A stretch of 64,000 bases of DNA from a virus (Duplodnaviria > Heunggongvirae > Uroviricota > Caudoviricetes). The position numbers and the translations under genes are program-made. The notes below the pieces were generated by a model. That model saw only the letters and a list, made by a program, of their open reading frames with translations. It was not told where the DNA came from and made no database searches. This document shows, one piece after another, positions 3,338 through 64,000 of this stretch. Within the stretch, counting starts at the first letter, position 1; each line of letters begins with the position of its first letter. The stretch lies in the IMG/VR virus record IMGVR_UViG_3300035210_000102, positions 28,354-92,353 of that record. One strand, 5' to 3'.

Positions 3338-3347
3338 GAGTAACCCA

Positions 3348-4411: not shown

Positions 4412-4841
4412 TCGCGAATCGCGCTTGCGAATCAATTACGCAGCCCGCATACTGATTACGCATCGTGAGTACTCGCGGCGACCCTTCCACAAAGGTGAAG
4501 AGCAACCGTTACACCGTTCCTCTTTCTTCTGCGTGCATTCACGATGCACCCCCTGACGATCAACTGGACGGAAGACCCCGTTGATTTCTCAGGCTGAAAG
4601 AGTGGCGGCTCGATGACCGACAGACTGGGTTAGGGGTTCTCCCCGGTCTGTCGGCCCAGCTTTCTTGGAGGGCTTTGCAGTGTACATCCTGGCTCGAGAA
4701 ATGTTCGAGCATCTTGATCGCGAGCCACACATCGATCTCTTCCCGCTCTGGGTTAGAGGCTGCATCTTGGTTAGCGTATTCCTGCTCGGCCTCGCTGTCT
4801 GGGGTGGCGTCATAATGGCAATTCTGTATCTCTCAAGCTGA

Positions 4842-37011: not shown

Positions 37012-37015
37012 TGGC

Positions 37016-37336
37016 TCACCAGTAGTAGACGTGCGGTTTCTTTGAAAGAGGCCAGCAAACCCCCTCGGGATCGTCTTGGCCGGTTAAAATGCGATGTTCC
37101 AGCCGCGCCTCGGCCGCTCGCCTTCTGCGCGAATGGTAGATGATGTCGTGCCATCGTGGGTATGCCCACCAATGGCAACGCCCAGAGCCCGCCGGCCAGT
37201 AATCGATCTCCGGATCGCGCTCGGTCCAGTGCGGCACGCGAACGGGCTTCAACCCAAGTCTCCCCCTTCTGAATGTTTCGCCGCTGCGGCGGCCCTTCCC
37301 CTGATAACGGCACTTGCCGCGCTTGTAATGTGACAT
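37016..37336 (-). CDS. hypothetical Arg/Trp/His-rich protein upstream of SPFH gene
   Basis: Co-oriented with and abutting the SPFH gene. No motif recognised, and it is not obviously NfeD-like. Confidence 0.3.
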   Translation of the reverse strand: MSHYKRGKCRYQGKGRRSGETFRRGRLGLKPVRVPHWTERDPEIDYWPAGSGRCHWWAYPRWHDIIYHSRRRRAAEARLEHRILTGQDDPEGVCWPLSKKPHVYYW

Positions 37337-37446
37337 GGCGTAACTCCGCTCGAGTGTCGGTGACTACGTCATGTTTTCCCCCTCTCGATTCCGGCCAGTA
37401 CGCGCGTTGCATTATAGCGCTACGCAGCCTGCAAAGGAATTAACGC

Positions 37447-47396: not shown

Positions 47397-50300
47397 TGAC
47401 TGACAACCAAGGTTACGGCGCGCAACTCAACGCGCTTGTCAGCGACGAAGAAGCGCCTCCGATTACGGCGCAAGAGCTGCTCGGCGATCAAACCTATCAG
47501 GCCGTAAAGCTTTGGCAGCAAGACCAAGAACAGCGGTCGCTCCAGCAAGCAATTCAAGGGTCGGCGGATAATGCTGCGCGTTCGCAGCAGAACTTCGCCA
47601 TGCCCGAGCATCACACGCTGCGCGAGCCGCACGAGCGCCCGGTCACCGTGCCGAGCCCATTTGGCATGCCGGGCTCCCCGAACATTGAGCGCAATACGGC
47701 AGGACCCGTGCGCGCCCAGCCGGCCGAGACCGGAACACCAATCACGCCGCCCTCGGCCGAACAGACGGCTGGCGGGTCCGTTGAGGCAACGAAGGGCCTC
47801 GAGGAGCGGCAGAAAAAGGGCGAGCAGCTCGCCGCGCAAGCCGCTTCCGCAAAGCAGCAATTCGACAAAGCCACCAAAGAGCTCGAGTATTTCGATCGCC
47901 AAGCCGCGGCGCAAATGCAAGCCGAGGAGACTGGCGCGCAGCCGACGCAAGACTTGAACGCTATGCGCGCCAACATTGAAAACCGCGTGCGCAATGCGTG
48001 GGCGTTGTACGCCTCGGCCGAGCACGAGCAGGCGCAACACGAATATGCCGCCGCGCATACCGGCAAACCCATGCCGATGCCCTGGACGGCTGCGCTGCAG
48101 GGCCTTGTCGTCGGCAGCGTGAAAAAGCCCCAACAAACCTTGGAAGCGTTGCGGCATCAAAGGCCGACACCGATCGAGGAAAGCCCGGCCGCTCAGCCAA
48201 TAGAACTCGGCTGGCCCTCGCTGTCGGGCATTTCAAAGGGCTTCTATGGATTGGGCGAAAGCGCCCCCGAAATGGGCGGCGGCATCTTTGGCGCTATGCT
48301 CGGAAGCGAGTACGGCCCGCTCGGAACACTCGCAGGAACCGCCGGCGGCGCGGCTTTTGTCAACAGGCTTAAGTCGTTCGGCTCGTTCTATGAGCAACGC
48401 CTAAACGAAACGCCCGACAACCCGGACGCCGCCTATGTGAAGGCGATGGCCGACGCGCAGACATCTTCGCTATTCACCGGCGCGGGCTGGGCGCTCTTTG
48501 CTGCCAAGCCGTTCCAGAGCGAAATCCGCAATGCCCTGATGCAATCTTTCGGCGTGCAACCGAGCGTCGCGGTTATGGAGCGGATGACCAATAACATTCG
48601 CGACAACAAGCCGCTTTCAGAGGGGACGCAAGAAGCCTACACGCAGGGCGTGTTCGGCGTTGCTCCGCTTATGCTGGGCCACGTCGCCATAAACCGCATA
48701 ACCGGCCACACACCGACCCAAGGCACGGACGGGCGCGGCGCCGCGCGGCCAACTGTCGAAATGGCCTACCCTGGCGCCGGCCTGCAAACGATGGAAGCCG
48801 GCGTTACCACGCCCGAGCTGAAAGCCCCCGCCGAACCGCAGGCAATCGCGCCAAGTGCAAACGCGCAAGCCAGGGAAGGCGACGGCGGCCCGACGCTGCC
48901 GACAACTCCCGAAGCGCAGGCGGTATCTGCCGGCAACGAAAAGCTGAAAGCCGGGATTGAGGGATGGCAAAAACCGGCGGACGCCACGGAAGCCGCAGCG
49001 CCCGTAGAAGCACCGGCCGCGCCGGCAGAAGTCAGCACGGGTACGGAATGGCGTGACATCGCGAAGGCAGGCGAGCCGGGCGTAAAGCTTCCGGAAGCGC
49101 CAGCCACGGCGCCGGCCTCCCCTTTCGACGCGCTCTATAATAAAGCCGTCGACCTCGTTCGCACCGATAACAGGCCGAGCGCCAACTACCTGCAACGCAA
49201 GATGGGGCTTGGCTATATTCCGGCGTCCGAGCTTATGGCGCGCATGGAAAAGGAAGGCGTCGTAAGCTCGCCGCATCCAACGACCGGGCGCCGCCTTGTT
49301 CTCCCGCCAAAAGTGCAGGAACCTGTCGCACAACCTGAACAGCCGCAGACGGCCCCGGCGCCGATCGCGGCCGAGGCGGCGCCTGTCGCCATGCCGATCT
49401 ATTCCGGCCCTGCATCTGGCTTTTCGAATGTCGACATCTCGCGCGTCGGTGACCGCATTGTCGTCAAGGGCACTGACACCAGCGGCCGGCCGTTTACGCA
49501 AAGCTTCAACGAACAAGACTGGACCGGCGGGAACACCGGACAGGCAAAATGGGAACGGCTCACAAGCGCGCAGCTAAAGGAAACGCCCGAACAGATTATG
49601 GCGAAAGGCGCCGCCCAGTTTCAGAACTCAGCCAAAAACTACCCACCAGTAAAGCTGGCGGGCATATATCGAGGTCTTCGCCAGCATATCGCTAATGTCG
49701 AGCTCACCGTGAATGACCCGGTAGAGCGCGCCCGCCAAGCCGGAACGGGCATGATCGAACACCTCGAGGAGCAACTTGCCAGTATGAAGGGCTGGGTTGG
49801 TGCTTACGAGGCACGCGAAGCAATTTCCCCTACCCTCAAGCGCCTGCCCTCCGCAATTCCGCAGTCGGAGCTTCCGCCCGCATACAGGAACCCGCCGAGA
49901 CAGGCGTGGCTGCGCCCCGAAAGAGCGCCAGAGCCTTACGAGCACAACTACGCTTTCGGCCCCGACGATGAACCCTGGCGGCGCACCGACGCGCCGTACT
50001 ATAGCGGCATTCCCGACACGGCCGATATCCGCGGTGGGCCGAAATATCGAAACATCGCCGAAAACCCGAATGCCGAGCCCGGCCGACCCGACCTCGAGCG
50101 CGTATTCGGTTGGAATACAGTCGCCGAAAATCCGAAAGCAGAGCCGGGCGGGCCAAGCCTTGTCAGGCCTCACCGCTGGAATACCATCGCGGAAAACCCG
50201 AACGCAGAGCCCGGCAGTCCCGAAGTCAAAGGTAAGCCCGGCCTTTCCGAGCGCATAAGGGACGCCCTTGTCGGCGCGGCTAAGCGCCTGAAGGAGATGG

Positions 50301-53300
50301 CGACCGGAAAGACGGAAGCACACGAAGACCCGGTTGCCGAGGCGATCGCGACTTCGCTGCATGAAGACGGGCAAACGCCCGAGCAAATAAAGGGAAAGTT
50401 GGATGAGCTCGAGCAGCACATTACCGCCGGGGCTGAAGAAGAAAAGCCACAGCAGCAGCCAGGGGATGGCAGTGGGGCGGCAGAAACACACGAAGCCGGG
50501 AGCGGGAGCAATGCACCCACAACACCTGAAAGCAGTGGCGAACGGCCTACGGAAGATGTCGAACAACACCCCAGCGATGCAGGAGCAGGCGAACAAGCTG
50601 GACCAGATGGCGCAGGAGCAGGAGCAGGCGAACCAAAACCCGCAGCCGAGCTCACCGATGCCGAACGAAACGCCTTCGACGCCATCCTTGCCAGCCGCGC
50701 CAAGCAATCCGAATGGGGATCAAAGCTCGGAGTCTCTGCTGACGATCTAAAGCGCTATATCGAGGACGCGGTTCGCCGCGGCAAACTGCGCGAGGCCGAC
50801 CGCAACGGCATCTATCGCCGCACGCCGAAAGGGAAGGAAAAGCCGGCCGAGACGCAGGTGCCACAAACGCCGGCCGACATCGCCGACCTGATGGCTGACA
50901 ACGTCTTGCCCGCGGTCCCGGTTGATGAAGCGGGATGGAAAGCACTCATTCCGCAGCTTGTTGACCGCTACACAAAGGCCGCCTACTCGGTTGAGCAGGG
51001 GCAATCCGACGCTGCCTACGCACGCACTATGATGGGCGAGATGTATTATTTCCACCGCGGCGCAACGGAAACGGGCGCCACGGAAGCCGCGAATACATTG
51101 ACGGTCATAGGTCAGCGACTGTATCAGGCGATGGAAGCCGCCGAACGTCGCGAAGCGCTTGATGGCCCGCTTGATGAAAGGCCGCCAGAGAAGCCAGCCG
51201 AGCAGCCGCCGGCGCCGGCACCTCAAGACGAAACGCCGCCGGCCGACCTACACGAGCGCTTTGTTGCGCATGTGAAGGCGCGGCTGATCGCGGGCGAACG
51301 CCCCTTCAAGAATATCATTGAGGCGCGGCAGCTCGCGAAAGCCCTCGGTCTCGAATTCCCGGAAAACACATCCGCCAACAAACAGGTCGACGAGCTCGTT
51401 GAACGCGCCGTTGTCGAGGCCGCCCGCGTTGTGGTTGAGCACGGCCGGGCCGAGGGCGCGCCGTCCGATGAAATATATGAACGCATGGTCAAGCTGTACG
51501 ACAATCAGCCAAACCTTGCCACGCGCACCGGCAAAAGCATTTCTGAGCAAGCGTACTCTACGCCGGCGCCGCTCGCGTATGTCGCCAGTCGCCTTGCAGG
51601 TATTGACGCCAACACGCGCGTGCTTGAGCCAACAGCAGGCAACGGCATGCTTCTCATGGAAGCAACGCCGAAGCATGCGCGCGTCAACGAGATCGATGCC
51701 ACGCGAGCGAAGGCGCTCGAGGCGCAGGGCTTCCAGGTCACCAAGTGGGATGCAACCGAAGCACAAACCTTTGCGGGCACCACTGGCAAGTATGACGTCG
51801 TAATCACCAACCCGCCCTTCGGCGCGGTGAAAGTTGGCGGCAAGTCCAAGGTGTTCAAGGCGCCCGGGCTCAATACAACGAACATTGACCATGCGATTGC
51901 ATTGAATGCGCTGCAAAGCATGAAGAGCGATGGCCGGGCCGTGCTAATCGTGGGTGGCGTAAAGGCCGACAGCCCGGCAGAACGTGCCGCGGGCTACGGC
52001 AGCGCCAAGCGCAAATTTTGGAATCAGCTGCTGACCAAATATAAGGTTGCCGACGTTTTCACCGTCGATGGCGACCTCTATGCAAAACAAGGTGCGGGCT
52101 GGCCTGTCGATGTTATTGTTATCCATGGCAAGGGCAGGACGGAAGGTTTCAAGCCGCTAACGCTGGAAGCACCGCCGCTCCTGAAGTCATGGGAAGAGGT
52201 AGGAGAAAGACTTCGTGGAACAGAAAAACAAGAAACCCCTGTCGGACCAGGACTACATGGAGACAGTGGCGGCAAGGGCCCTGAAACTCCTGGAGGAGAG
52301 CCCGCAACCGATGGACCTAATGCGCTGGGCGGATCGTCGTCTGGTGGCGGAGGGGCTGGAGAACGGCAGCCCGGCGGAAAAGACGCCGGAGGCGTGGGTG
52401 GACCACGTGATATCCCAGAACCTGAATCTCCGGGACAACCTCCATTGGGTGAGAAGCCGGGGGAGTCAGCCGGAGAAAGCGGAGACGTTCGAGGACCTGA
52501 TAACGGCCTTCATCCCAACGGAGGGGGGCCTGTAGAAGAACGGCCGACTGAAAAGCCGCCAGAGCGGCCGGCGGATTACGGCTCTAAGAATACGCTTATC
52601 ACAAAGGAACGCGCGGACGCTGTTCGCGAGCGCTTGCGGCAGAAGCTTCGCGAGTCCGGTTCACAGCTAAACGCCGGTATTGACCCGGAATTTGTGCAGC
52701 TCGGGACCGAACTTGCCGTGTTCCACATCGAGGCCGGAGTTCGGAAATTCGCCGACTTTGTCGCGGCAATGACGCAAGACCTTGGCGCCAAGGTTGCTGA
52801 CCTGAAGCCCTACCTGCGTTCCTGGTATAACGGCGCGCGGGACATGATCGAGGATCATGGACTTGACACCGAGGGGCTCGAACACCCCGATGTTGTGCGC
52901 ACCGAACTGGATCGGCTGATCGCCGAAGAGGTCGCGCCAAAAAAAAACCAGGCGCCCCCACCGCGCGAAAAACTCGCCATCAACGAAGGCGACACACAAA
53001 CCCCTTACATGCCTGTCTCTAAGGTCAAAGACAGGTTGGGCACATTGCTGCCCGCCAATTTGCACAACGCGACAAATGAAGCGCTCGACCGTATTCAGCG
53101 CGAGCACGGCAGCATCGATCACTATGTTGCCAATGGGCTCGGCCGAGACCCGATGGAACTTGGCAAATGGTTCGCGCAAGAGCAGGTCGACGCTATCGCC
53201 CTGGCAATGGACAACCTCGAAAGGGGCGGCTCGCTAATCCTCGGTGATCAAACCGGCATCGGCAAAGGGCGTGTCGTTGCGGCGATGATCACCTACGCCC

Positions 53301-56300
53301 GCAAGCGTGGCCTTGTCCCCGTCTTTGTAACCGAAAAGGCCGACTTGTACGGCGACATGTGGCGCGACCTGCACGACATCGAATGGGATAAGCAGCTCGG
53401 CCGTCCCATCGAAATGATGATGACAAACTCAGAGATCAAGGTTCCTCTCGATGAGGCGGCGGTGGCGTGGACCCTAGAGCGCGACGAGGCAAAGGCTGAA
53501 GGCATGCCGCTGCCCCCGCGTTTCGGGCAATTCTCCCCTTCCCAAACCCTCGACATGTCGCGCGACAACATGATGGCGCTTCGGCGCGGCGAGTCGAGCC
53601 CTGACGTCGTGTTCACGACCTACAGCCAAATGCAGAGCACCAAGGGGCAGGAGAACGATCGCCGGGCCTTCTTGCTCGACATCGCTCCTGCGGCATTCCT
53701 CATAATGGATGAAGCCCATAACGCCGGCGGCGGAGCGAGCGCTAACGAAAGGGGCACGCCGAAAGGCAAGGCGCCCCCAGCATCAGAGCTGTTCCGCGAG
53801 GCCGTCAATCGCGCCTCGGCGGTCATGTATTCATCGGCGACTTACGCCAAGTCTCCCAACGTCATGACGCTGTACTCGCGCACCGACATGGCAAAGGCGG
53901 TCGAGAAGGTCGACCAGTTGCCGGGCCTGATCGCTCGCGGCGGCGTGCCGTTGCAACAAATCGTTGCCTCGATGCTGGCGAAAGCCGGGCAGTACTTGCG
54001 CCGCGAGCGTTCCTTTGAGGGCGTCGAGTACAAGCAACAGACAGTGCCCGTCAAAGAAGAGGCCTACCAGGAATTCACGCACGGCGTCAGCGGCATCTTC
54101 CGGTTCGATCTTGGTTTTGCAAAAGAGCGCAAGGAAATCGCGAAGAAGATGGCCGCGGCCGAGTTTGGCGGCACAGCAAACGACAACGCGATCGGCGAAC
54201 CGTCCGCGTCTTCCACTTCGTTCTCATCGCTCATGCACAACGTCGTCAATCAGATGGTTGTCGCTATGAAGGTTGAGCAGGCGGGCGATGCGGCGATCGA
54301 GGCGCTGAAGCGCGGCGAAAAGCCGGTCCTCACCCTGTCACGCACGAACCTGTCTTTCATCAAGCAGTTCCGCGAAGAGCAGGGCTACGAGATGGGGCAT
54401 GCGCTGCCTATCGGCTTTGCGGACATCCTACACCGCTACCTCGAACGCACGCGGCGTGTGACGCTCAAGTCTGCCGCCGGCGAAAAAGTGCACAAAATGA
54501 TTGCGCTGGAGGACATGTCTCCTCGGGCGAGGGCGCGCTACAACGAAGTCGCTCAACTCCTCCGCGAGGTCGAGCTCGGCGACCTGCCTATTTCGCCGAT
54601 CGATGCGATCCGGAACAAGATCACACAGGCCGGCTATAGCGTGCGCGAGATCACCGGGCGCAGTGAGATGCTGGATTATTCAGCACGCGAGGAAACGGAA
54701 GATAGCCTCATCGGCCAGGGCTTTGTCTTCGAAGAGCCTGGGAAATGGAGGGACCTGCCGAACCAGCCGAAAAATCAAAATGAGTGGCTGATAGCGACCG
54801 AAAGCGGCTCGGTTATGGCGCATGCTGCAACAAAAGAAGCAGCAATCGCGGCCTACAATAAGAAGTACGCCAACACAGACCCGATCGTGGTCAACCGCCC
54901 GGCAGGCGAACAGGGCGCGCAGGGCAAGGCGGTCACCAAGCAGATGTTCAATGACGGCAGCCTGGACGCCATCATTCTGAACAGCTCAGGCTCGACCGGC
55001 ATATCGCTGCACTCCTATTCGAAGTTCAAGGACCAGCGCCGCCGGCACATGATCATTGTCGAGCCGGATGCGAATATCGACACGCACATGCAAACGCTCG
55101 GCCGTGTACATCGTACCGGGCAAGTCATTCCGCCGATCTACACGCATTTGACGGCCGACATCCCGGCCGAGGTGCGGCCAACAGCTGTGCTTATGCGCAA
55201 GATGGCGTCGCTGAATGCCAACACGACAGGCGCGACCAAGTCGCATGTGTCGGGCGAGGCGGTCGACTTCCTGAACAAATACGGCGATCAGGTCGTTTTG
55301 GAAGCCCTTATCGAAGACCGCGAAATTGCGGATCAGCTTGGCGTCGACCCCGAAGGCGACTTCGAAGGCCTTGCCGCCAAAGCGACCGGCCGCTTAACGT
55401 TGCTTTCGCCAAAAGATCAGAAGACGTTTCTTGATGACATCTCGCAACGCTATACGCGGTTGATTGCGGCTCTCGACGCCACTGGCGCGAACGACCTCGA
55501 GGCGAAGTATCTCAATTTGCAAACACGCATTCTTGAATCGCAGGAGCTGAAGCCGGCAACCGGCGATTCCCCCTTCCAGGAAGCGGTCAAGCTCGACAAA
55601 GTTTCGATCAAATCGCAAGGCCGCGCAATGGCGCCCAGCGAAGTTGTTGAGCGCATCGAGAAGGCGACCAAGAGTAAGGCCGGCGGCGATGGTTTCGCCC
55701 TTGACATGGCGATGCTGCAGAACAAAGGGCGGGACGTTCAGAACAAGCTTGCGCAGGATGTCGACGTCAAAATCGACATGCAAATCCAGGCTATCCGCAA
55801 GGCGATGAAAGACCCGGAAGCGGCACAACGCGCGGTGGACAAGATCCTCGTTGATAAGCGCAAGTGGCGCATGCTGGCGAGCATCGTGTATCCCGGTGCC
55901 CGAGTCGATCTTCACCTTGAAGGGGAAACTGTTCCGGCGATCGCTATCGGATTAGAGCAAACCAAAAACGCCAAAAACCCCATCGCGCTGTCGACCTGGA
56001 CAGCACTATTCGCACTCCCTGACAGCCGTCGCACGCTGGGTGTGCCGCTGTCGAAGCTGGAAGAAGGCGAAGTGATTGTCGATGTCGGCGGGGAAAACAG
56101 CAAAGACATCCATGTCACCCACGGCAAGACTAGCTTTGCTAATCTCGAGGGGATGTTCGAAGCGGCCCGCAAAGAAGGGCGGGAAACCCGCTACATGCTG
56201 TCGGGCAACATTTTGGCTGGCTTCAGCGAGACGCAAGGCGCCGGCCAAATTGTGATGCACTCGCTCGAGGACGGCACGGTGCAGCCCGGCATCTTGATGG

Positions 56301-59300
56301 CACGCCAGTTCAAGCCCAAGGATTTTCTCGAGAACCGCGCCGTGCGTTTTGCAAGCGGGCGGCATGTGCTCGACTTCTTCAAGGAGTCGACAGCCGGTGA
56401 AGTGGTCTCAAGCGACAAGATCGTCACCATCCGACGCGAACCGCAACGGTGGGGGCCGCCGAACTTCGAATTCGAGATGCCCCCTGCCCGCGGTGTCGGC
56501 GGAAAGTATTTCGGCGATCAGCGCGTGCGTGACATCTACGACAATTGGCAGCGAAGCCACGGCAAGATGCGGGCAACCGTGGACGCCGCGATGGCCGAAA
56601 ACCTCATCGACGCCATGCGCGACATCGGCGCGAGCTTCGAAACGCGCACGGAACAGAACCTTGCGAACAGCTCCCGCCCGGCCGAGAAGCCCGTGGCGTC
56701 CTTTGGTGCCGGCGGGCCCGACATTGCGGCAGCCGGCGGCAGGCAGATGATCGACCCGCACACGGGCATTGATGATGTAAAGGAGCTGCTGGCTGCGGGC
56801 CGGACCGCGGTTGTGCACCCCGAAATGACAGCGGCGGTGCACGATGTTCTCACTCGCATGAAAAACGAGATTCCGGCGGAGATGCAGGCCGGCGCGCTGG
56901 TCGCAATCGACCCGATCGGCAAGACGCGGGCTCGGCTGCGCTTCACATCACCGGACGGCGGGAAGTTCTCAGTTGTTGTTGAGTCTCGTTTTGCGGCTAG
57001 TTACCGTGCCCTCTTTGATAGAACGTCCAATTTCGTCTTGGGCATCCTTCATGCTCATGGGGCCGATGGGAGCGCCTCCGAAAGCATCTCGGAAACTCTG
57101 GCCGGACGGGTCAGGCATGAGATCGTTCACTTTCTGAGAGACACCGGGCGCTTTTCCGCGGGTGAGTGGAACCGGCTTGTTGATCATGCGAATAAACTCC
57201 ATCCTTTGGATTGGTCGGCGAAAGCTTGGCTTACGGCATTGCGCGATCCACTTGCAGAACACGCGCGGCATGACGAAAGTCACCGTGATTGGTACGAAGA
57301 TTATTATAAGCACCTCTCGCCCGAGGAGCTACAGAAAAAGCTTGACGAAGAGCAAGTGGCCCATAGCGCTGAATTCTTGTCAACTCTGCTTGACATGGAC
57401 GAGAACGATCCTTTCCGCCAAGAATACTTGCCGCATTTCGACGATGTCATGGACATCTACGGCAAGCTTTTCTCCGGAGAGCTCGCGCGGCGCCTGCCGG
57501 AAGACGTGGCCGACCATAATTCAGAACCCGGCGAGCTGCCCTCCCCTGCCCTCGCTGGCGGTCCGGCCGGCGCCTACACGCTGTCGGCACTCAACGACAA
57601 AAACTCGCCGGAATTCTCCGAACTGCGTAAGGCGCTCGCCGGCGCCCGACGCCTGTTGAGCCTGACGGAAACGTCCGGCAAGCGCGTCGGCGCGGCCAAA
57701 GATAGCTACGCCTATCAGCTCGCCGACACGTTGTCGCTTATTGCTGAGAAAGGCGCGGACGCCCTTGACGCAAAGATGGGCCCCGAGTTTACGGCGCTGA
57801 AAGAGTTGCACCGCGACGAGCTCGAGCTGCTCGCCCCGAGCGGTTCCGCGGACCCCTTGCAAGATGGCTTCCACGCATTCATGCGGTCCTATATCGAGGA
57901 GTCCGACGCCCTACAGAAGGCGGTTCCGGAATTTTTCGAAGCTTTCGAACATCACGTCGAGCATGAAGCTCCGAAACTTTTGGAAAATTTGCAAAAGATA
58001 CAAGAGGCCCTCGGCGTCGGCGGCACGCATCACCTATTAACCTCCGTTCTGTCGGACCCGCACTTCAGTGGAACATTCGGCGTGGATCGCGCCGAGCTGT
58101 TTGACCGGCTTGGTAGGGCGGCCGACGCCTACAAAACCGCGAATGACGGCTACGAGAACGTCAAGGCCGACGTGACAGCGGCAAACGACTATCTGAAGGG
58201 GCTGCCGGCCGACCAGCGGAGCTATGTGCTCTTCAATACCGACCGACACGTCATGCAGGCGCACCCCGTCATCCGCGCGAACAAGATCGCCAACATCATT
58301 CACCAACTCGCGAACGCCCTCAACCTGGGGCAACTGCGCGACACATCGCAGGGGCGCACCGCGCCTTACATCCAGCTTCCGCCGGAACGCGCAAAGGAGG
58401 TCTACAACCTGCTTCTGCAGCATGCGGGCGTCGAGCTGCACAACGCCATGTATGCGGCCGGGCATCCGGGATACAGCGGCGCCGGCAAGGTCAACCCGCG
58501 CGTCACATTGGCGGACCTGAAAGAAGCGTCACCGGCGGTGCGTGCCGAGCTCGATCGCCGGCTGAAGCGTGCCAACATCCAGAAGCCACTCGTGGTTGAT
58601 CGGTTTTACCCGCTCCTCGCCAAGCATATTGAGCATACATGGCAAAGCGCCGCAGCGTCCGATCAATTATTTCGCGCGCAGTTCCGGCCGAGCCGTTGGC
58701 AGCGGATTTGGAAGGCGCCCGCGGGCTTTGTCCAGACCCCGAACCAAGGATTCCAGCCACCGCAGACGCCCGCCGGTGGCGCGTATGGCCCGGCAGGCGT
58801 ACCGAAGAAGCCGAGCCATTTGGCCGCCAAGATCGCCGAGTCTTTCAAGCGCACGATGGCGCCGGAAAGCATTTCGGAAGATGCGCTGAAGGCTGGGCCG
58901 CGCTTCAAGGAATTCAATTCGCTCACGCAGCAAGGCAAAGACGCGTTCGTCAAGCTGTTCGATAACTACCACAAGGCCTGGAACCGCATCTCGGATGCCG
59001 ACCAAATCCGCTGGCTCGGCAACTTCGAGCGCGGCACATGGGACAATATGAACCCATGGGAGCGCGAGTTCGCCGACCTTGTGAAGCCGTTGATGGACTG
59101 GGCCTACGACACCGAAAGGGACTACGGTTCCAAGGCGGCCTATCGCGAGAACTATCTCGCCCACATGTGGGAGCTGGGCGATCGCGTGACCGAACATTTC
59201 AACTCGGTCGCCACACAAAACCGGCTCGGCCCCACTTGGTTTCAGAAAGCCCGCGTGTTCGACTTTGTCGATGAAGGGCTGGCGGCCGGCTACAAACTAA

Positions 59301-61528
59301 AGACTACGAACCCGGCCGAGATCATCACCAAGCGGTTGATGGCCTCGATCGACATGCAAGAGCGCATGAAGCTGCTCGCCGACCTGCGCGATACTTACGG
59401 CTTGGCGGCCAAAGCCAAGGGCGCCCCGCCCGTTCTGGACAAGCTTGGGTGGCGAGAGATCAGCGCGCCTGATCGCGAGAACTGGCTGCTCCATCCCGAC
59501 CTTTTGCCAACATGGGATAACGTGTTGGCCCAGACGGGGTGGTGGGGCTCGCAAGGCTGGGGCGGCAGTATCTTCCGCGGCTGGATGGGCCTGAAAGCGC
59601 TGTGGGTTCCGATCAAGCTTGCCGTCAGCGGCTTCCATCCGCTGCACGTTGTCGGCATCAATTGGGCCGCGCACGTCTCGCGCGGGCTGCACAGTTTCTA
59701 TGGCGCCGCGACAGCCACGAAGACGGTGACACGAAAGGTGGGCGGCGCCACCGTTGTCGAGTCTCGTGTAAGAGATCACGACAAGGCGGGCAAACTGCTG
59801 CAGATGGCCACCACCGATCTGTTACGCAGCCTTGACCCGATGGGCCTGCGTTATGCCGCGAAAGGCGGGGAGAATAGCGGCTGGTATGCAAGGCAGGCCT
59901 GGGAAATCCCCGAAAAGGACCAGACGCCCGAGCAGCGCGCTATCGTCAAGCGCATAGCCGAGATGGGCCTTGTGCCTCAGATGCCCGAAGAAATGCGCGT
60001 CAACTCAAAGCGTGCCTTCTCCAATGCAATGCACGACGTTCGCGAAGAGTGGTCGAAAAATTGGCACTCATGGGACAGCATGAAGGCTCAAGGTGCACTT
60101 GGGTTTGCTGGCGCAAAGCGGGTTGTGGAGCATGGCGGCATCGCCGGCGCAATCGTTGGCGGAAGCATCGGCGGCATCCCTGGCGCGCTGCTCGGCGCCG
60201 CGGCTGACATCGGAATCCGCCGCTTCATCTTTGAGCGCTGGATTCCGGCCATGAAAATCTCGGCCGCCCTTCTCGATGACGCGGCCATGGCCGCACGGCA
60301 TCCGGAAATCTACGCCGACGACATTCAGCGCAAAGTGGCGCGTGAGGCGATCGGCGAGCAGAACGAGAACCGCTTCGGCGAGATGTTCCACAAAAACCTG
60401 TTTTGGGACAAGAAGCTGCGCGAGACGCTTACCGGCGTGTATCTGTCGATGCCCTGGCAGCTCGGCTTCCTTCGCGAGCACCTCGGCGCGCCGATCTCGG
60501 CCGTCGCGCGTGTGTCGGATGCTGCGCGCGGTTTAGTGACCGATCACAAGCCTACAGAGACAAGGGCGACGATCCGCGCGGCGGAAAACAAACTGCTCTA
60601 TGTGCCCGTCTATTTGCTCGGCGGCGCGATGGCGGCGGCGATGATCCAGTATTTTCGCACGGGCAGTCTGCCGGACCCCTACGACCCGCTCAGTCTCGAT
60701 TGGCAAATGCCCAAAGTCGGAGGGAACAACGCTGATGGCTCACCGCGGCGCGTGTCGACGATGTGGTACAACCGCGAATATGTCGCCTGGATCAAACACA
60801 TGCAGGAGATGGGCGGCGGCGTGAGCGGCGCGTGGCAGGGCACTAAGGAGATGAACTGGAACAAACTGATGCTCCAGCCGCTCTGGGAAATGTACACGGG
60901 GCAAGACTATTTCCGCAACGAGATCAGAGATCCGCACGGCACGCTTCCGGAGAAGATCGGACAGACGGCACGCTCGATCCTTACCGAGCAGCTCAGCCCT
61001 ATGTCGTGGACGAACGCACAGCAGGCGTTGAAGTCCAGCAGCTCGCCGGCGTCTGACGTCACCCTATCGCTCCTCGGCTTCGGCCCGGCTCCGGCTTATG
61101 TGTCGCGCACGGCAACACAGAACCGCATCGCCTATCTCTATCGCGAGTACAATCAAGGTGCTCGGCCCTACTCTGAAGTCGAGATCGCGAAATCGAAGAG
61201 AGACGCCCAGTCGGCCTACGATGCCGCCAAGCGCATCGAAGACCCGGCAGCGCGGCGCGCGGCAGAACAAACCGCCGTGGAGAAGATGCACGCGGTTGGC
61301 GCCAAAATCCGATCCAAGGATTTCGACGTGACCATGTTTTCCAAACTGCCTCCGGCCGATCAGCTCGCCATCCTTGAAGAAGCAACGCCGGCCGAGGCGA
61401 ATAAATACGTGTCGCGCGTCAACAAGAAGCTTTACGGAAACCCGGATTTCTGGGCTTTGAGGAAGACTATCACCGGCGCCGCGAAGCAACCGAAGCCGGT
61501 CGGCGACGCAAGCTTAGCTTTGCGTTAA
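47396..61528 (+). CDS. giant 4710-aa multidomain protein: FtsK-gamma-like wHTH, N6-adenine DNA methyltransferase, SNF2/DEAH helicase, HExxH region
   Basis: Single uninterrupted 14.1-kb ORF. Motifs seen: LQRKMGLGYIPASELMARMEKEGVVS (FtsK-gamma-like); VITNPPFG (MTase motif IV) with upstream LEPTAGNG; GDQTGIGKG Walker A; MDEAHNA (DEAH); LGRVHRTGQ (motif VI); HEIVH. It is DarB-like in architecture. Confidence 0.7.
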   Translation: MTDNQGYGAQLNALVSDEEAPPITAQELLGDQTYQAVKLWQQDQEQRSLQQAIQGSADNAARSQQNFAMPEHHTLREPHERPVTVPSPFGMPGSPNIERNTAGPVRAQPAETGTPITPPSAEQTAGGSVEATKGLEERQKKGEQLAAQAASAKQQFDKATKELEYFDRQAAAQMQAEETGAQPTQDLNAMRANIENRVRNAWALYASAEHEQAQHEYAAAHTGKPMPMPWTAALQGLVVGSVKKPQQTLEALRHQRPTPIEESPAAQPIELGWPSLSGISKGFYGLGESAPEMGGGIFGAMLGSEYGPLGTLAGTAGGAAFVNRLKSFGSFYEQRLNETPDNPDAAYVKAMADAQTSSLFTGAGWALFAAKPFQSEIRNALMQSFGVQPSVAVMERMTNNIRDNKPLSEGTQEAYTQGVFGVAPLMLGHVAINRITGHTPTQGTDGRGAARPTVEMAYPGAGLQTMEAGVTTPELKAPAEPQAIAPSANAQAREGDGGPTLPTTPEAQAVSAGNEKLKAGIEGWQKPADATEAAAPVEAPAAPAEVSTGTEWRDIAKAGEPGVKLPEAPATAPASPFDALYNKAVDLVRTDNRPSANYLQRKMGLGYIPASELMARMEKEGVVSSPHPTTGRRLVLPPKVQEPVAQPEQPQTAPAPIAAEAAPVAMPIYSGPASGFSNVDISRVGDRIVVKGTDTSGRPFTQSFNEQDWTGGNTGQAKWERLTSAQLKETPEQIMAKGAAQFQNSAKNYPPVKLAGIYRGLRQHIANVELTVNDPVERARQAGTGMIEHLEEQLASMKGWVGAYEAREAISPTLKRLPSAIPQSELPPAYRNPPRQAWLRPERAPEPYEHNYAFGPDDEPWRRTDAPYYSGIPDTADIRGGPKYRNIAENPNAEPGRPDLERVFGWNTVAENPKAEPGGPSLVRPHRWNTIAENPNAEPGSPEVKGKPGLSERIRDALVGAAKRLKEMATGKTEAHEDPVAEAIATSLHEDGQTPEQIKGKLDELEQHITAGAEEEKPQQQPGDGSGAAETHEAGSGSNAPTTPESSGERPTEDVEQHPSDAGAGEQAGPDGAGAGAGEPKPAAELTDAERNAFDAILASRAKQSEWGSKLGVSADDLKRYIEDAVRRGKLREADRNGIYRRTPKGKEKPAETQVPQTPADIADLMADNVLPAVPVDEAGWKALIPQLVDRYTKAAYSVEQGQSDAAYARTMMGEMYYFHRGATETGATEAANTLTVIGQRLYQAMEAAERREALDGPLDERPPEKPAEQPPAPAPQDETPPADLHERFVAHVKARLIAGERPFKNIIEARQLAKALGLEFPENTSANKQVDELVERAVVEAARVVVEHGRAEGAPSDEIYERMVKLYDNQPNLATRTGKSISEQAYSTPAPLAYVASRLAGIDANTRVLEPTAGNGMLLMEATPKHARVNEIDATRAKALEAQGFQVTKWDATEAQTFAGTTGKYDVVITNPPFGAVKVGGKSKVFKAPGLNTTNIDHAIALNALQSMKSDGRAVLIVGGVKADSPAERAAGYGSAKRKFWNQLLTKYKVADVFTVDGDLYAKQGAGWPVDVIVIHGKGRTEGFKPLTLEAPPLLKSWEEVGERLRGTEKQETPVGPGLHGDSGGKGPETPGGEPATDGPNALGGSSSGGGGAGERQPGGKDAGGVGGPRDIPEPESPGQPPLGEKPGESAGESGDVRGPDNGLHPNGGGPVEERPTEKPPERPADYGSKNTLITKERADAVRERLRQKLRESGSQLNAGIDPEFVQLGTELAVFHIEAGVRKFADFVAAMTQDLGAKVADLKPYLRSWYNGARDMIEDHGLDTEGLEHPDVVRTELDRLIAEEVAPKKNQAPPPREKLAINEGDTQTPYMPVSKVKDRLGTLLPANLHNATNEALDRIQREHGSIDHYVANGLGRDPMELGKWFAQEQVDAIALAMDNLERGGSLILGDQTGIGKGRVVAAMITYARKRGLVPVFVTEKADLYGDMWRDLHDIEWDKQLGRPIEMMMTNSEIKVPLDEAAVAWTLERDEAKAEGMPLPPRFGQFSPSQTLDMSRDNMMALRRGESSPDVVFTTYSQMQSTKGQENDRRAFLLDIAPAAFLIMDEAHNAGGGASANERGTPKGKAPPASELFREAVNRASAVMYSSATYAKSPNVMTLYSRTDMAKAVEKVDQLPGLIARGGVPLQQIVASMLAKAGQYLRRERSFEGVEYKQQTVPVKEEAYQEFTHGVSGIFRFDLGFAKERKEIAKKMAAAEFGGTANDNAIGEPSASSTSFSSLMHNVVNQMVVAMKVEQAGDAAIEALKRGEKPVLTLSRTNLSFIKQFREEQGYEMGHALPIGFADILHRYLERTRRVTLKSAAGEKVHKMIALEDMSPRARARYNEVAQLLREVELGDLPISPIDAIRNKITQAGYSVREITGRSEMLDYSAREETEDSLIGQGFVFEEPGKWRDLPNQPKNQNEWLIATESGSVMAHAATKEAAIAAYNKKYANTDPIVVNRPAGEQGAQGKAVTKQMFNDGSLDAIILNSSGSTGISLHSYSKFKDQRRRHMIIVEPDANIDTHMQTLGRVHRTGQVIPPIYTHLTADIPAEVRPTAVLMRKMASLNANTTGATKSHVSGEAVDFLNKYGDQVVLEALIEDREIADQLGVDPEGDFEGLAAKATGRLTLLSPKDQKTFLDDISQRYTRLIAALDATGANDLEAKYLNLQTRILESQELKPATGDSPFQEAVKLDKVSIKSQGRAMAPSEVVERIEKATKSKAGGDGFALDMAMLQNKGRDVQNKLAQDVDVKIDMQIQAIRKAMKDPEAAQRAVDKILVDKRKWRMLASIVYPGARVDLHLEGETVPAIAIGLEQTKNAKNPIALSTWTALFALPDSRRTLGVPLSKLEEGEVIVDVGGENSKDIHVTHGKTSFANLEGMFEAARKEGRETRYMLSGNILAGFSETQGAGQIVMHSLEDGTVQPGILMARQFKPKDFLENRAVRFASGRHVLDFFKESTAGEVVSSDKIVTIRREPQRWGPPNFEFEMPPARGVGGKYFGDQRVRDIYDNWQRSHGKMRATVDAAMAENLIDAMRDIGASFETRTEQNLANSSRPAEKPVASFGAGGPDIAAAGGRQMIDPHTGIDDVKELLAAGRTAVVHPEMTAAVHDVLTRMKNEIPAEMQAGALVAIDPIGKTRARLRFTSPDGGKFSVVVESRFAASYRALFDRTSNFVLGILHAHGADGSASESISETLAGRVRHEIVHFLRDTGRFSAGEWNRLVDHANKLHPLDWSAKAWLTALRDPLAEHARHDESHRDWYEDYYKHLSPEELQKKLDEEQVAHSAEFLSTLLDMDENDPFRQEYLPHFDDVMDIYGKLFSGELARRLPEDVADHNSEPGELPSPALAGGPAGAYTLSALNDKNSPEFSELRKALAGARRLLSLTETSGKRVGAAKDSYAYQLADTLSLIAEKGADALDAKMGPEFTALKELHRDELELLAPSGSADPLQDGFHAFMRSYIEESDALQKAVPEFFEAFEHHVEHEAPKLLENLQKIQEALGVGGTHHLLTSVLSDPHFSGTFGVDRAELFDRLGRAADAYKTANDGYENVKADVTAANDYLKGLPADQRSYVLFNTDRHVMQAHPVIRANKIANIIHQLANALNLGQLRDTSQGRTAPYIQLPPERAKEVYNLLLQHAGVELHNAMYAAGHPGYSGAGKVNPRVTLADLKEASPAVRAELDRRLKRANIQKPLVVDRFYPLLAKHIEHTWQSAAASDQLFRAQFRPSRWQRIWKAPAGFVQTPNQGFQPPQTPAGGAYGPAGVPKKPSHLAAKIAESFKRTMAPESISEDALKAGPRFKEFNSLTQQGKDAFVKLFDNYHKAWNRISDADQIRWLGNFERGTWDNMNPWEREFADLVKPLMDWAYDTERDYGSKAAYRENYLAHMWELGDRVTEHFNSVATQNRLGPTWFQKARVFDFVDEGLAAGYKLKTTNPAEIITKRLMASIDMQERMKLLADLRDTYGLAAKAKGAPPVLDKLGWREISAPDRENWLLHPDLLPTWDNVLAQTGWWGSQGWGGSIFRGWMGLKALWVPIKLAVSGFHPLHVVGINWAAHVSRGLHSFYGAATATKTVTRKVGGATVVESRVRDHDKAGKLLQMATTDLLRSLDPMGLRYAAKGGENSGWYARQAWEIPEKDQTPEQRAIVKRIAEMGLVPQMPEEMRVNSKRAFSNAMHDVREEWSKNWHSWDSMKAQGALGFAGAKRVVEHGGIAGAIVGGSIGGIPGALLGAAADIGIRRFIFERWIPAMKISAALLDDAAMAARHPEIYADDIQRKVAREAIGEQNENRFGEMFHKNLFWDKKLRETLTGVYLSMPWQLGFLREHLGAPISAVARVSDAARGLVTDHKPTETRATIRAAENKLLYVPVYLLGGAMAAAMIQYFRTGSLPDPYDPLSLDWQMPKVGGNNADGSPRRVSTMWYNREYVAWIKHMQEMGGGVSGAWQGTKEMNWNKLMLQPLWEMYTGQDYFRNEIRDPHGTLPEKIGQTARSILTEQLSPMSWTNAQQALKSSSSPASDVTLSLLGFGPAPAYVSRTATQNRIAYLYREYNQGARPYSEVEIAKSKRDAQSAYDAAKRIEDPAARRAAEQTAVEKMHAVGAKIRSKDFDVTMFSKLPPADQLAILEEATPAEANKYVSRVNKKLYGNPDFWALRKTITGAAKQPKPVGDASLALR
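50050..50240. repeat. three imperfect tandem repeats (63/66 bp) inside giant ORF
   Basis: Encodes N.(I/V)AENP.AEPG.P...W three times. Confidence 0.55.
52939..52947. repeat. A9 homopolymer tract inside giant ORF
   Basis: gcgccaaaaaaaaaccagg in a ~64% GC background. It sits between the MTase and helicase domains. Confidence 0.6.
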
Positions 61529-61600: not shown

Positions 61601-62716
61601 TTGGATTCTCCGATGGCTGCGAGCAATTACGAGCGCTGCCTTGCCATTACATTGAAATGGGAAGGCGGCTATTCCAATCATCCCGACGACCCGGGCGGCC
61701 CGACGAACTTCGGCATCATCCAGCGGGAATACGACAAGTGGCGTGTGGCGCATGGGCTTCCTGCGCGTTCTGTCCGTTATATCGAGGTCGGCGAGTATCG
61801 CGACATCTACCGTAAGGAATACTGGGATGTGGTTGGCGGCGACCAGCTGCCGGCCGGGTACGACCTTGCCGTCTTTGATGCCGCGGTAAACAACGGAACC
61901 GGCCGCGCGCGGCAGTGGCAGGCGCAATACCCGAACGATATCGACAAATTCTGCGATGCGCGCCTCGCCTTCGATCAGCGCCTCGGCCGCCTTTGGCGCG
62001 TGTTCGGCGCGGGCTGGGCGCGACGCATCTCTAGCATCCGGCTTGCGGCGCATGCGATGGCCGAACCGAGCACCTACACACCGCCACCGCCCGATGACAC
62101 CGTAAGATGGGCGCAGGGTGTTCTATGCAAAATTGGCCTTCCCTGCATCGTCGATGGATACGACGGGCCAAAGACACAAGGCGCCGTAGTGCTTTTCCAA
62201 TCCACGCATGGGCTTAAGGCGGATGGGCAACTTGATCCGAAAACCATTGCGGCGCTGAAAGCTGCAATCACCCCTCCACCGGCAAAAGCTCCGGCATTCA
62301 ACCCCTTCACCATTTTCTTTGGCACCATCGGAAAGGTCATACACATGGTAACGAGTACCGTGGCAGCCGCCACAACCATTTCGCCCGAGGCGAAGGCTAC
62401 TGCGCAAGGCGCCGTGGTTGGCACGAAGTCGATCGCCGGCACACTCACGAGTTTGTTCGGGAGCGGCATTTTTGCGACCGCGGCAGGCATCTTTGCCACC
62501 TTGGCGCCCACGACCACGCTGGCCATCCTTTCGCTTGTCGCGGCGATCGGTGCCGTCGTCAACGCGATCGGCCACGGCCTACAGGCGATCGGCGTCATTC
62601 GGGCATCGGACGCGGCGACATACGTCATCATCGAAAACCTGCTGAATGAGGTTTCGCAAACGCTCGGCGGCAAGAAGGTTGTGTCCGACTTGGACCCTAC
62701 GCCGGCGACGGCGTAA
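61601..62716 (+). CDS. endolysin: GH108 N-acetylmuramidase + PG_binding_3 domain with hydrophobic C-terminal extension
   Basis: LKWEGGYSNHPDDPGGPTNFGI (GH108 signature with the catalytic Glu), then GYDGPKTQGAVVLFQ..GLKADG (peptidoglycan-binding). The final ~130 aa are Ala/Thr/Gly/Ile-rich and hydrophobic. Confidence 0.7.
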   Translation: MDSPMAASNYERCLAITLKWEGGYSNHPDDPGGPTNFGIIQREYDKWRVAHGLPARSVRYIEVGEYRDIYRKEYWDVVGGDQLPAGYDLAVFDAAVNNGTGRARQWQAQYPNDIDKFCDARLAFDQRLGRLWRVFGAGWARRISSIRLAAHAMAEPSTYTPPPPDDTVRWAQGVLCKIGLPCIVDGYDGPKTQGAVVLFQSTHGLKADGQLDPKTIAALKAAITPPPAKAPAFNPFTIFFGTIGKVIHMVTSTVAAATTISPEAKATAQGAVVGTKSIAGTLTSLFGSGIFATAAGIFATLAPTTTLAILSLVAAIGAVVNAIGHGLQAIGVIRASDAATYVIIENLLNEVSQTLGGKKVVSDLDPTPATA

Positions 62717-63045
62717 TGCAGCGTAGCCTCACCCTCTCCCTTGCTCCAGCGGACAGGGCCGCGCTGGACCGCCTTTCTCAGGCCCTGATTTCGACCTCGC
62801 TCACATTGGAGACCGCTATGTCCGAACTCAAAGACACCGCTGACGCCGTACTCGCCGAATCTAAGAAAGCTGCCGCTTACATCGTTTCACTGGCTGACCA
62901 ACTCCTCGCCGCGATCGCCAGCAATGACCCCGCCGAACGTGACGCTGTCATTGCCGAACTCAAGGAAGCTGTGGCCACCCTAGCCCAGGTCGACACCCCA
63001 ACCGTTGCCGCCGGCGCCGGCTCAAGTGACACCTCCGCATCATAG
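62716..63045 (+). CDS. hypothetical helical protein in lysis cassette
   Basis: 109 aa with coiled-coil-like composition. Start overlaps the endolysin stop. Confidence 0.35.
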   Translation: MQRSLTLSLAPADRAALDRLSQALISTSLTLETAMSELKDTADAVLAESKKAAAYIVSLADQLLAAIASNDPAERDAVIAELKEAVATLAQVDTPTVAAGAGSSDTSAS

Positions 63046-63047
63046 TA

Positions 63048-63425
63048 ATGGCCGGCATACCTGAACCATTACAACAACTACTGGAAGCGCTGCCAGACGC
63101 GGCGCTTTCGGTCGGAGGCGCGCCTATGAGCGACCATACGTGGCTGATCGTGGCCATCCCGATTTTCGTTAATCTTGCCGTTTTCGCTTACTACTTTGGT
63201 GGGCTGGCACAACGAATTCGCATTCTCGAGTCTGACTTTGAAAAGATGGTCAGCACGTACACGCGCGTAGACGATCGCACTCACGGATTGGCGGTGGTCA
63301 TGGGAAAGATCGAAACGAAGATGGACACGCTCTGCAATCGGCTGAGCGGCGACCACTCGGACTGCCCGCTGGCGCCGGCGAGACGCCGGCCACGAATTGA
63401 CGAGACGTCCGCTGTCCTGACATAG
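63048..63425 (+). CDS. single-TM membrane protein (holin or i-spanin-like candidate)
   Basis: TM segment WLIVAIPIFVNLAVFAYYFGGL followed by a helical periplasmic-type domain. Confidence 0.4.
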   Translation: MAGIPEPLQQLLEALPDAALSVGGAPMSDHTWLIVAIPIFVNLAVFAYYFGGLAQRIRILESDFEKMVSTYTRVDDRTHGLAVVMGKIETKMDTLCNRLSGDHSDCPLAPARRRPRIDETSAVLT

Positions 63426-63479: not shown

Positions 63480-63504
63480 CCCCGCCAGCTCGGCGGGGTT
63501 TTTT
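63480..63504 (+). terminator. rho-independent terminator
   Basis: ccccgccagctcggcgggg hairpin followed by T6. Confidence 0.7.
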
Positions 63505-63530
63505 GTTGTCCTACTTTCCGGAAAGGTAGG

Positions 63531-63743
63531 TTAATCGTGCCGCTTGCGGTTCTGCTCGGCCATTATATTGGCAAAGAGCTCTTTCGCCATCGCCCAGCCC
63601 GGCGGCTCGCTGAAGCATAGGAGGCATCCCGCGCAATCCTTCAGCGTGACCATGACCGGGTCGAACCCCTGAACCGATTTGCGCAGGCATTTCGCGGTGC
63701 CCTTGTCGTAACGGGCGTCTTCGGAGAAATAGAGACAGTTCAT
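63531..63743 (-). CDS. hypothetical Cys-containing small protein
   Basis: 70-aa minus-strand ORF lying beyond the terminator. Confidence 0.3.
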   Translation of the reverse strand: MNCLYFSEDARYDKGTAKCLRKSVQGFDPVMVTLKDCAGCLLCFSEPPGWAMAKELFANIMAEQNRKRHD

Positions 63744-63784
63744 TGGTCATCCTCGGCTGGCGGGGTCAGCTCCTCGAGCTCGTG

Positions 63785-64000
63785 TCACGCCGCGATCTTG
63801 AGGCGAAACTCAGCGTCAAATTCGCCGTAGTTACACGTGATCTCCTCGCCGGCCCTGATGAGGCGTGTTGTGACGTCAACGCCGAATTCGGGGATGCCCT
63901 CCTTGTACCGGCCGACAGTGTTCGGATTGTCCGAATGGTTCGTGAACCGCGCGTCGTCATTGCACATCACGTAGAGACCGAGGCGTGCATCGAAGTAGCC
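63785..64000 (-). CDS. SET-domain protein (partial, N-terminus beyond window)
   Basis: C-terminal ...RFTNHSDNPN...GEEITCNYG matches the SET NHSxxPN and EELTxxY motifs. The ORF runs off the window edge. Confidence 0.5.
   Translation of the reverse strand, partial: GYFDARLGLYVMCNDDARFTNHSDNPNTVGRYKEGIPEFGVDVTTRLIRAGEEITCNYGEFDAEFRLKIAA

Follow-up and report, generated by a model that had tools for sequence, protein, structure and literature searches.

Some phage endolysins carry membrane-spanning segments at their C-terminus. The endolysin of the Salmonella phage Siskin has two C-terminal transmembrane domains (TMDs), predicted to lie N-in/C-in, and is adjoined by a single-TMD holin (PMC6498227). 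M4Lys of phage BSPM4 lyses Escherichia coli alone, independently of Sec and in a manner that requires its TMD (PMC7143992), and ORF39 of the Hafnia phage Enc34 has a two-helix TMD, for which its authors state that no known mechanism moves an N-terminal domain by means of a C-terminal signal (PMC8943055). The TMD is needed for toxicity or lysis in both M4Lys and Enc34 (PMC7143992, PMC8943055). LysAP, from the Acidovorax phage AP1, joins a GH24 domain to one C-terminal TMD that is needed for membrane localisation and lysis (PMC8879335). The authors of the Enc34 study regard the C-terminal-TMD architecture as limited to Chivirus and its relatives (PMC8943055), and how such endolysins gain access to the wall is acknowledged to be an unsettled question. 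Here we analyse a 64,000-nucleotide (nt) stretch of phage DNA (positions 28,354–92,353 of IMG/VR record IMGVR_UViG_3300035210_000102; hereafter the window), in which the interval 61601–63425 holds a putative lysis cassette. Its first gene fuses a predicted muramidase to a C-terminal membrane module that is, as judged by sequence, a second, unrelated version of a layout thought to be confined to chi-like phages. The C-terminal ~120 amino acids (aa) of this protein are a selected, autonomous module that is exchanged among catalytic domains.

The interval contains three plus-strand open reading frames (ORFs): 61601–62716 (371 aa from TTG), 62716–63045 (109 aa; ORF2) and 63048–63425 (125 aa; ORF3). 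The first opens at TTG 61601, and gene callers and the homologues P0002 and P0003 start at ATG 61613 (MAASNYERCL), which gives a fusion gene of 367 aa at 61613–62716; the residue numbers of its domains count from TTG 61601, i.e., from the 371-aa form. Residues 15–99 (61643–61897) form a GH108 muramidase domain that covers the full Pfam profile (PF05838, 90.2 bits against a cutoff of 21.2), with the W-E-G-G-Y catalytic-Glu motif visible in the translation at residues 20–24 and sequence matches to the solved structures 7dnp (1.4e-22) and 2is5 and 2ikb (~1e-16). The initial annotation had named GH108 and PG_binding_3 domains; the first stands, and the wall-binding domain is instead PG_binding_1 (PF01471, 41.5 bits against a cutoff of 23; PDB match 5nm7) at residues 166–219 (62096–62257), with PG_binding_3 marginal (25.8 bits against 24.6) over 30 residues that overlap the PG_binding_1 stretch. 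Both N-terminal domains are modelled by AlphaFold2 (AF2) with a predicted local distance difference test score (pLDDT) above 90. The protein is assigned to phrog_315, and its matches in cultured phages are confined to the first ~155 aa, i.e., the GH108 region. Before residue 236 there is no 19-residue stretch with a Kyte–Doolittle (KD) hydropathy of 1.3 or more. The enzyme half reads as a cytoplasmic GH108 muramidase with a PG_binding_1 domain, its activity being predicted, joined to the membrane module through an Ala/Thr/Pro-rich linker.

In overall layout the window protein resembles the endolysins of Siskin, BSPM4 and Enc34: each has a soluble N-terminal enzyme without a signal, a linker and two C-terminal hydrophobic helices, and each is encoded in a cassette that lies at the end of the late genes and includes a small single-TMD protein. 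The catalytic domains differ, being GH108 plus PG_binding_1 in the window and PHA02564 in the three described enzymes (the Siskin enzyme belongs to phrog_873). An alignment of the module profile with the Siskin endolysin by hhalign gave a probability of 0.1% and E = 0.5, i.e., no detectable homology, and a comparison of ORF3 with the Siskin holin was likewise negative (E = 0.4); the locus is therefore similar in architecture and not a member of that family. The window module has an additional conserved acidic tail of ~38 aa where Siskin has a short basic one. Unlike the Siskin-type domain, it is common to several catalytic families, also occurs free-standing and comes with a conserved internal Shine–Dalgarno (SD) motif and start, and unlike the Siskin-type cassette, that of the window lacks a spanin pair and has an additional soluble protein, ORF2. 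LysAP likewise lacks an N-terminal signal and carries its membrane segment at the C-terminus, but it has one TMD followed by an Arg/Lys cluster and an adjacent holin gene, whereas the window protein has a two-helix hairpin and an acidic tail and belongs to a different family. In the TpeE family of Clostridium sporogenes a natural holin–endolysin fusion is made as a single polypeptide (PMC9527704). TpeE and the window protein both place a holin-type membrane segment and an endolysin in one chain; in TpeE the holin part is N-terminal, with one transmembrane helix and an amphipathic helix, and the host is Gram-positive, whereas the window module is at the C-terminal end and may, in addition, be produced by itself. 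Our literature search found no description of the module, of its fusions to several enzymes or of its internal start.

The long Ala/Thr/Gly/Ile-rich tail with hydrophobic stretches that had been noticed in the initial annotation is borne out: it spans ~140 aa, with one clear and one or two weaker helices, and the last 142 aa contain 26 Ala, 19 Thr, 14 Ile, 14 Gly and 13 Val. Helices were called from Kyte–Doolittle hydropathy and the family alignment. The 19-residue hydropathy peaks are 2.14 (residues 306–324, which include ILSLVAAIGAVVNAIG), 1.57 (residues 284–302) and 1.39 (residues 238–256). Between 62270 and 62344 (FNPFTIFFGTIGKVIH) lie a Pro/Ala linker and the first part of an amphipathic helix (residues 233–250, hydrophobic moment ~0.4); the helix is found only in the GH108 subgroup. 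The layout shared by the family in the alignment is an Ala/Thr-rich lead-in followed by hydrophobic helix 1 (residues 278–301, IAGTLTSLFGSGIFATAAGIFATL, 62432–62503), a four-residue APTT turn with a family-invariant Pro (62504–62515), hydrophobic helix 2 (residues 306–333, TLAILSLVAAIGAVVNAIGHGLQAIGVI, 62516–62599) and a conserved net-acidic tail with a moderately amphipathic helix (62600–62713; motif ..T..xxxENLLNxxxxxLGGKxxVxDLDP, in the family alignment ..T..xxxENLLNxxxxxLGGKPxVFDNDP). Helix 1 is weakly hydrophobic and rich in Gly, Ala, Ser and Thr (46–62% across the family, 62% in the window); helix 2 is more hydrophobic, a clear transmembrane (TM) segment with a largely conserved His. AF2 also places helices at residues 278–301 and 306–333, at low confidence.

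It is very unlikely, in our estimate, that this extension is a non-membrane low-complexity linker, or a peptide that interacts with the wall or the outer membrane, with no role in membrane passage. Its Ala/Thr/Gly-rich composition, the low AF2 confidence and the lack of a positive-inside signal would fit such a peptide. Conservation is nevertheless position-specific, with invariant Pro, Thr, Glu and Gly in the module alignment; the 28-residue helix 2 segment has a mean KD of 1.86 and the best 19-mer reaches 2.14; and the same region also exists as an independent gene. Selection on the region argues in the same direction: between the window and its homologue in locus L004 (72% identical, with ~1.2 synonymous substitutions per site, dS), the ratio of nonsynonymous to synonymous rates (dN/dS) is 0.17 in the C-terminal region, compared with 0.09 in GH108 and 0.39 in the PG-binding domain.

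When 1.84 billion cluster representatives were searched exhaustively by phmmer with the last 148 aa as query, only 12 protein clusters proved to contain the module, the lowest E-value being 6.5e-30. It is fused to GH108 plus PG_binding_1 in the query, P0002 and P0003, to a PF11860 Muramidase domain plus PG_binding_1 in P0122, and to the C-terminus of GH24 phage lysozymes in P0125 and P0127; in P0130 it stands behind an N-terminal domain without a family assignment. Fused or edge-cut copies occur in at least eight loci and with at least three catalytic families. The module has no Pfam, PHROG or NCBIfam family, with sub-threshold noise only (DUF308, 8xMP), and neither a PDB profile search nor tblastn against GenBank phages and PLSDB plasmids returned a match. 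At the sensitivity that they offer, pattern scans of IMG/VR and GTDB genomes gave no module-bearing loci, one IMG/VR scan yielding GH24-domain matches without the module; a metagenome scan yielded two module loci, L036 and L037, and a profile-based word search returned only four members that were already known.

Of the short matches (85–164 aa) that were considered as free genes, four (P0121, P0123, P0124 and P0129) were rejected: they lie at contig edges with the frame open upstream and are therefore truncated fusions. With P0128 (no DNA) and P0131 (contig not looked up) left out of the count, the truly separate module genes are only P0126, found in loci L042 and L043, and an ORF in L037. P0126 has 124 aa, and its gene is flanked by minus-strand genes. 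In L043 it lies downstream of a tail-fibre-like gene. In L042 it lies ~680 nt upstream of a Muramidase plus PG_binding_1 endolysin, which is followed by an overlapped pair of inner-membrane and outer-membrane spanins (i-spanin and o-spanin), and the genes inspected between the module gene and the spanins included no further small TM protein. The L037 module ORF, with a 131-aa product, starts 125 nt past the stop of a GH24 lysozyme, in a different frame and with a perfect AAGGAG-n6-ATG of its own; its stop is overlapped by the following gene, an arrangement that the fusion gene and ORF2 repeat in the window. The free copies in L042 and L037 indicate that the module can work as a separate polypeptide, which then stands in the usual position of a holin. 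As separate observations on L042 (333–3739), the endolysin there ends in one TMD and a basic tail and is in this respect closer to LysAP than the window protein is; the i-spanin lies at 3148–3474, and the o-spanin is a lipoprotein-like ORF in the +1 frame that ends at 3739.

At the boundary between enzyme and module, the fusion gene contains a second candidate translation start. In the window an SD-like GGAAAGG (62330–62336) precedes an in-frame ATG (62345–62347) by an 8-nt spacer. The same arrangement recurs in each of the eight fused or edge-cut loci for which there is DNA, with 6–8 nt between an SD-like motif and an in-frame boundary start: besides GGAAAGG-n8-ATG at 62345 in the window, these are AGGAAAGG-n8-ATG in L004, AAAAGGA-n7-ATG in L036, AGGAG-n8-ATG in L041, AAGGAG-n6-ATG in L007, GGAG-n6-ATG in L009, AAGGAG-n8-ATG in L006 and AAGGAG-n6-GTG in L039. 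The residues encoded by these motifs vary from locus to locus (GKV, EKD, SGA, KEP, TES, KGV). Five of the fusion genes are complete; in the four of these with a boundary ATG (L039 has the GTG), the motif is present at 4/4 boundary ATGs and at 0/14 other in-frame ATGs; the background in the window's genes is 13 of 320 internal in-frame ATGs. A nested in-frame gene at 62345–62716 therefore probably yields, to judge from these motifs and from the standalone homologues P0126 and the L037 ORF, the free membrane module as a 123-aa holin-like candidate. Two hydrophobic helices separated by a four-residue turn are common to the putative nested product (123 aa), P0126 (124 aa) and the product of the L037 ORF (131 aa).

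Single genes that encode two lysis products have precedents. In Lys170 and in CTP1L/CD27L, one endolysin gene gives the full enzyme and a free C-terminal domain from an internal ribosome-binding site and start; the extra product there is a soluble wall-binding domain that enters a hetero-oligomeric enzyme, in phages of Gram-positive hosts, whereas in the window it would be a membrane module. The holin gene of lambda has a dual start (S105/S107), and S21 68 is a class II pinholin with a TMD1 of the signal-anchor-release (SAR) type. As with lambda S, the two products of the window frame would differ at their N-termini; the long and short forms of lambda S differ by 2–3 residues, those of the window by the entire ~245-aa enzyme. 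S21 and the nested product of 123 aa are alike in being small and in having two hydrophobic helices, the first of them rich in Gly, Ala, Ser and Thr. SAR domains are N-terminal Sec signals, as in P1 Lyz and phage 21 R21. SAR endolysins share with the window protein a weakly hydrophobic, Gly/Ala-rich helix on a lysozyme, at the N-terminus in their case. A SAR reading of the window protein was rejected because its hydrophobic helices are C-terminal: there is no hydrophobic segment at the N-terminus, and the helices follow ~275 soluble residues.

Our preferred interpretation is a lysis cassette whose first gene encodes a natural fusion of an endolysin with a holin-like module and additionally yields the holin-like protein in free form; we consider it about equally likely to be right or wrong. 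The initial annotation had offered a fused holin-like module or a SAR module. The second suggestion is set aside by the position of the helices. The first is strengthened by the exchange of the module among catalytic domains, by its free genes beside endolysins in L042 and L037, and by the internal SD motif and start. As far as its genomic behaviour goes, the module looks like a class II-type (two-TMD) holin, predicted to form a two-helix hairpin of ~95 residues with a conserved tail. The nested or free forms have several class II traits: a length of 123–131 aa, two hydrophobic helices of which the first is weak, and linkage to an endolysin, which is adjacent in L037 and within ~700 nt in L042, with spanins after it. 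There is also functional precedent, as C-terminal-TMD endolysins lyse E. coli unaided and in a TMD-dependent manner (PMC7143992, PMC8879335). The mechanism that we propose is inferred throughout, from membrane insertion and topology to hole formation, and so are translation from the internal start and the functions of ORF2 and ORF3. The full-length and nested products would both enter the inner membrane, so that the enzyme faces the cytoplasm, and would build up during late expression. At triggering, the module would permeabilise the membrane and the tethered muramidase would gain access to murein. Soluble ORF2 and single-pass ORF3 would act as accessory or regulatory lysis components, or as a second holin.

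Several observations weigh against the holin-like fusion. The module has no match to any known holin family in Pfam, PHROGs or NCBIfam, and four of the apparent standalone matches are contig-edge truncations. Helix 1 has a KD of just 1.3–1.6, and the pLDDT of the module is low, at 45–69 when the full protein is modelled and 51 when the module is modelled by itself. Its conserved, hydrophilic tail is net acidic, with 1–4 Lys/Arg against 3–6 Asp/Glu, whereas holin C-termini are typically basic; with this acidic tail and so few charges in the flanks, the topology is ambiguous, and the positive-inside rule gives no clear answer for the module. The internal SD of the window has a core of only 4 nt (AAGG), and SD-like motifs occur at about 10 of the 36 listed plus-strand gene starts of this phage, some of which are merely the first start codon of an ORF and may be wrong. 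The SD and ATG could also be left over from an ancestor in which the module had its own gene, and need not be in use. The TMD of M4Lys by itself is bacteriostatic and not lytic (PMC7143992, PMC8943055), and by analogy with the annotation in chi-like phages the conserved single-TM ORF3 could be the true holin.

ORF3 (63048–63425; PHROG 3961) encodes a single-pass membrane protein with a helical C-terminal domain, 125 aa long or 99 aa from 63126, and contains one clear TM segment (KD 2.07, residues 33–51). Its homologues are called in long (125 aa, M1 at 63048) and short (97–100 aa, M27 at 63126) forms and are nearly invariant over the TM segment and the next 40 residues, with two invariant cysteines (C96 and C106). 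M1/M27 could be a dual-start motif, and the Cys pair could be a disulfide or a metal site. Flanking charges give no orientation for ORF3 by the positive-inside rule, and a second candidate holin or a regulator is a plausible role for it. ORF2 (62716–63045), whose start overlaps the stop of the fusion gene, encodes a soluble, Ala-rich helical protein of 109 aa with no hydrophobic segment in its hydropathy profile and no signal sequence. Similar proteins of ~105–125 aa follow the fusion gene and overlap its stop in the window, L004, L007, L008, L009 and L039/L040. The three-gene order of fusion gene, soluble protein (~110 aa) and single-TM protein is shared by the window, L004, L007, L008 and L039/L040. 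In a lipobox pattern search that covered every frame of the window, the only matches were spurious ones inside other genes; without a credible lipobox ORF there is no o-spanin in the window, and ORF2 and ORF3 are thus not a two-component spanin. The picture of an atypical cassette in the initial annotation, with no canonical holin before the endolysin and the only clear TM protein two genes downstream, agrees with these assignments, since the gene directly upstream of the endolysin is an ORF of 4710 aa.

The conservation of ORF3 also bears on a different division of labour, in which the C-terminus is a tether only: the hairpin would anchor the muramidase to the cytoplasmic face of the inner membrane, as proposed for the N-in/C-in two-TMD endolysins of chi-like phages, ORF3 would be the holin whose lesion releases or activates the enzyme, and ORF2 would tune the timing. 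We regard this as the main rival, if less probable than a holin-like fusion. In Siskin, Enc34 and BSPM4 alike, the endolysin with its two C-terminal TMDs is accompanied by a small single-TMD protein that carries a holin annotation. In the window, L007, L008, L036 and L039 an ORF3-like protein, single-TM and helical, comes after the fusion gene, and ORF3 has the high conservation and possible dual start described above. A cassette of Rhodomicrobium vannielii (GCA_016461745.1; L005 6130–9901) contains a 95-aa single-TM counterpart that resembles the Siskin 'holin' (BLASTP E = 1e-7). A pure anchor, however, leaves unexplained both the separate module genes with their own ribosome-binding sites beside endolysins in L042 and L037 and the SD and start retained at the fusion boundary. 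Moreover, ORF3 shows no detectable similarity to the Siskin holin itself, and PHROGs label the Siskin-type 'holins' as Rz-like spanins, so that their holin annotation is unsettled.

The lysin of the R. vannielii cassette belongs to a separate group of more than 100 clusters of GH108 plus PG_binding_1 proteins of 345–353 aa, whose C-terminal membrane extension is of another kind and has one clear TM segment, WLLLCAVLVAAIAMIRLI in the R. vannielii member. This cassette comprises a tail-fibre-like protein of 538 aa, a 95-aa protein, the lysin, a 115-aa multi-TM protein and the 95-aa single-TM protein. No homology was detected between the window module and either the 115-aa multi-TM protein or the Rhodomicrobium-type C-terminus, or between ORF3 and the 95-aa protein.

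A more specific form of the holin-like fusion, which we put forward tentatively and think less likely than the general form, is that one reading frame is a self-timing lysis device. The long form would be a tethered muramidase that serves as both cargo and antiholin, the 123-aa form would be the free holin, and the ratio of long to short form would set the trigger time; such devices would have arisen repeatedly, as the module was joined to catalytic domains of at least three unrelated families. If correct, this would be a new way to get a signal-less endolysin across the inner membrane. If the module is indeed a holin, made in both free and fused form, the locus would provide a directly testable model for C-terminal-TMD lysis systems, a new holin family that annotation pipelines currently miss and a compact one-gene lysis cassette for engineering. 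The natural variants, in which the module is fused to several enzymes or split from them and the internal start is conserved, approach a ready-made genetic experiment.

The genomic setting is that of an uncultured, podovirus-like phage with a GC content of 55–63%. Its plus strand encodes the large terminase (18098–19666), portal (20110–22827), major capsid protein (33344–34183) and a tail spike with a Peptidase_S74 domain (37447–40047), together with a 976-aa tail protein and ORFs of 142, 159, 1166 and 4710 aa that resemble internal-protein genes. The portal is only ~26% identical to those of Pelagibacter HTVC010P-type podoviruses. The lysis cassette consists of the final three genes of the plus-strand late operon, beyond which the genes are on the minus strand. 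The operon is closed by an intrinsic terminator at 63480–63509, read from the sequence as CCCCGCC-agctc-GGCGGGG and then TTTTTTGTTGT; a terminator scan flagged the same stem on the minus strand, and it may act in both directions.

The neighbourhood raises another explanation, namely a virion-associated ejection muramidase that would be packaged with the giant upstream protein, be ejected at infection, cut murein locally and insert its hydrophobic C-terminus into the inner membrane as part of a DNA conduit (cf. T7 gp16 and PRD1 P7). The fusion gene follows directly after the internal-protein-like genes, no other peptidoglycan hydrolase domain was found by Pfam in 16 further window proteins, including the internal-protein-like ORFs, and the Siskin-type catalytic domain also matches 'tail injection transglycosylase' PHROGs. 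We nonetheless consider this role improbable. Elsewhere the cassette is not beside internal-protein genes: in L040 it comes after a tail spike and a 65-aa gene, in L036 it stands behind a divergent helix-turn-helix gene on a contig that also has an integrase, and in L042 the neighbours are spanins. Small membrane or helical proteins are always alongside, the window cassette ends its operon before a terminator, the usual place of lysis genes, and GH108 plus PG_binding_1 is a common endolysin layout.

The 4710-aa ORF immediately upstream of the cassette (47396–61528, plus strand) is probably a giant internal or ejected virion protein. It contains FtsK_gamma (residues 578–633), a methyltransferase signature (~1434–1477) and a Strawberry-notch-type helicase (AAA_34 plus Helicase_C_4, residues 1938–2639). 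Its last 711 aa gave no GenBank phage match by tblastn, and the C-terminal ~650 aa are conserved in L004. Two minus-strand genes lie inside the plus-strand structural module at 36076–37412, one of them encoding an SPFH/Band_7 protein (E = 1.5e-25). Just downstream of the cassette, L007 and L039, two unrelated members of the family, carry TnpB/OrfB_IS605-like genes on the minus strand (2353–3549 and 2760–4838, respectively). Past the terminator, the minus strand of the window contains a Cys-rich ORF of 70 aa (63531–63743), and a minus-strand ORF that runs off the window end (63531–64000 region) resembles by eye the C-terminal part of a SET domain (..FTNHSDNPN..).

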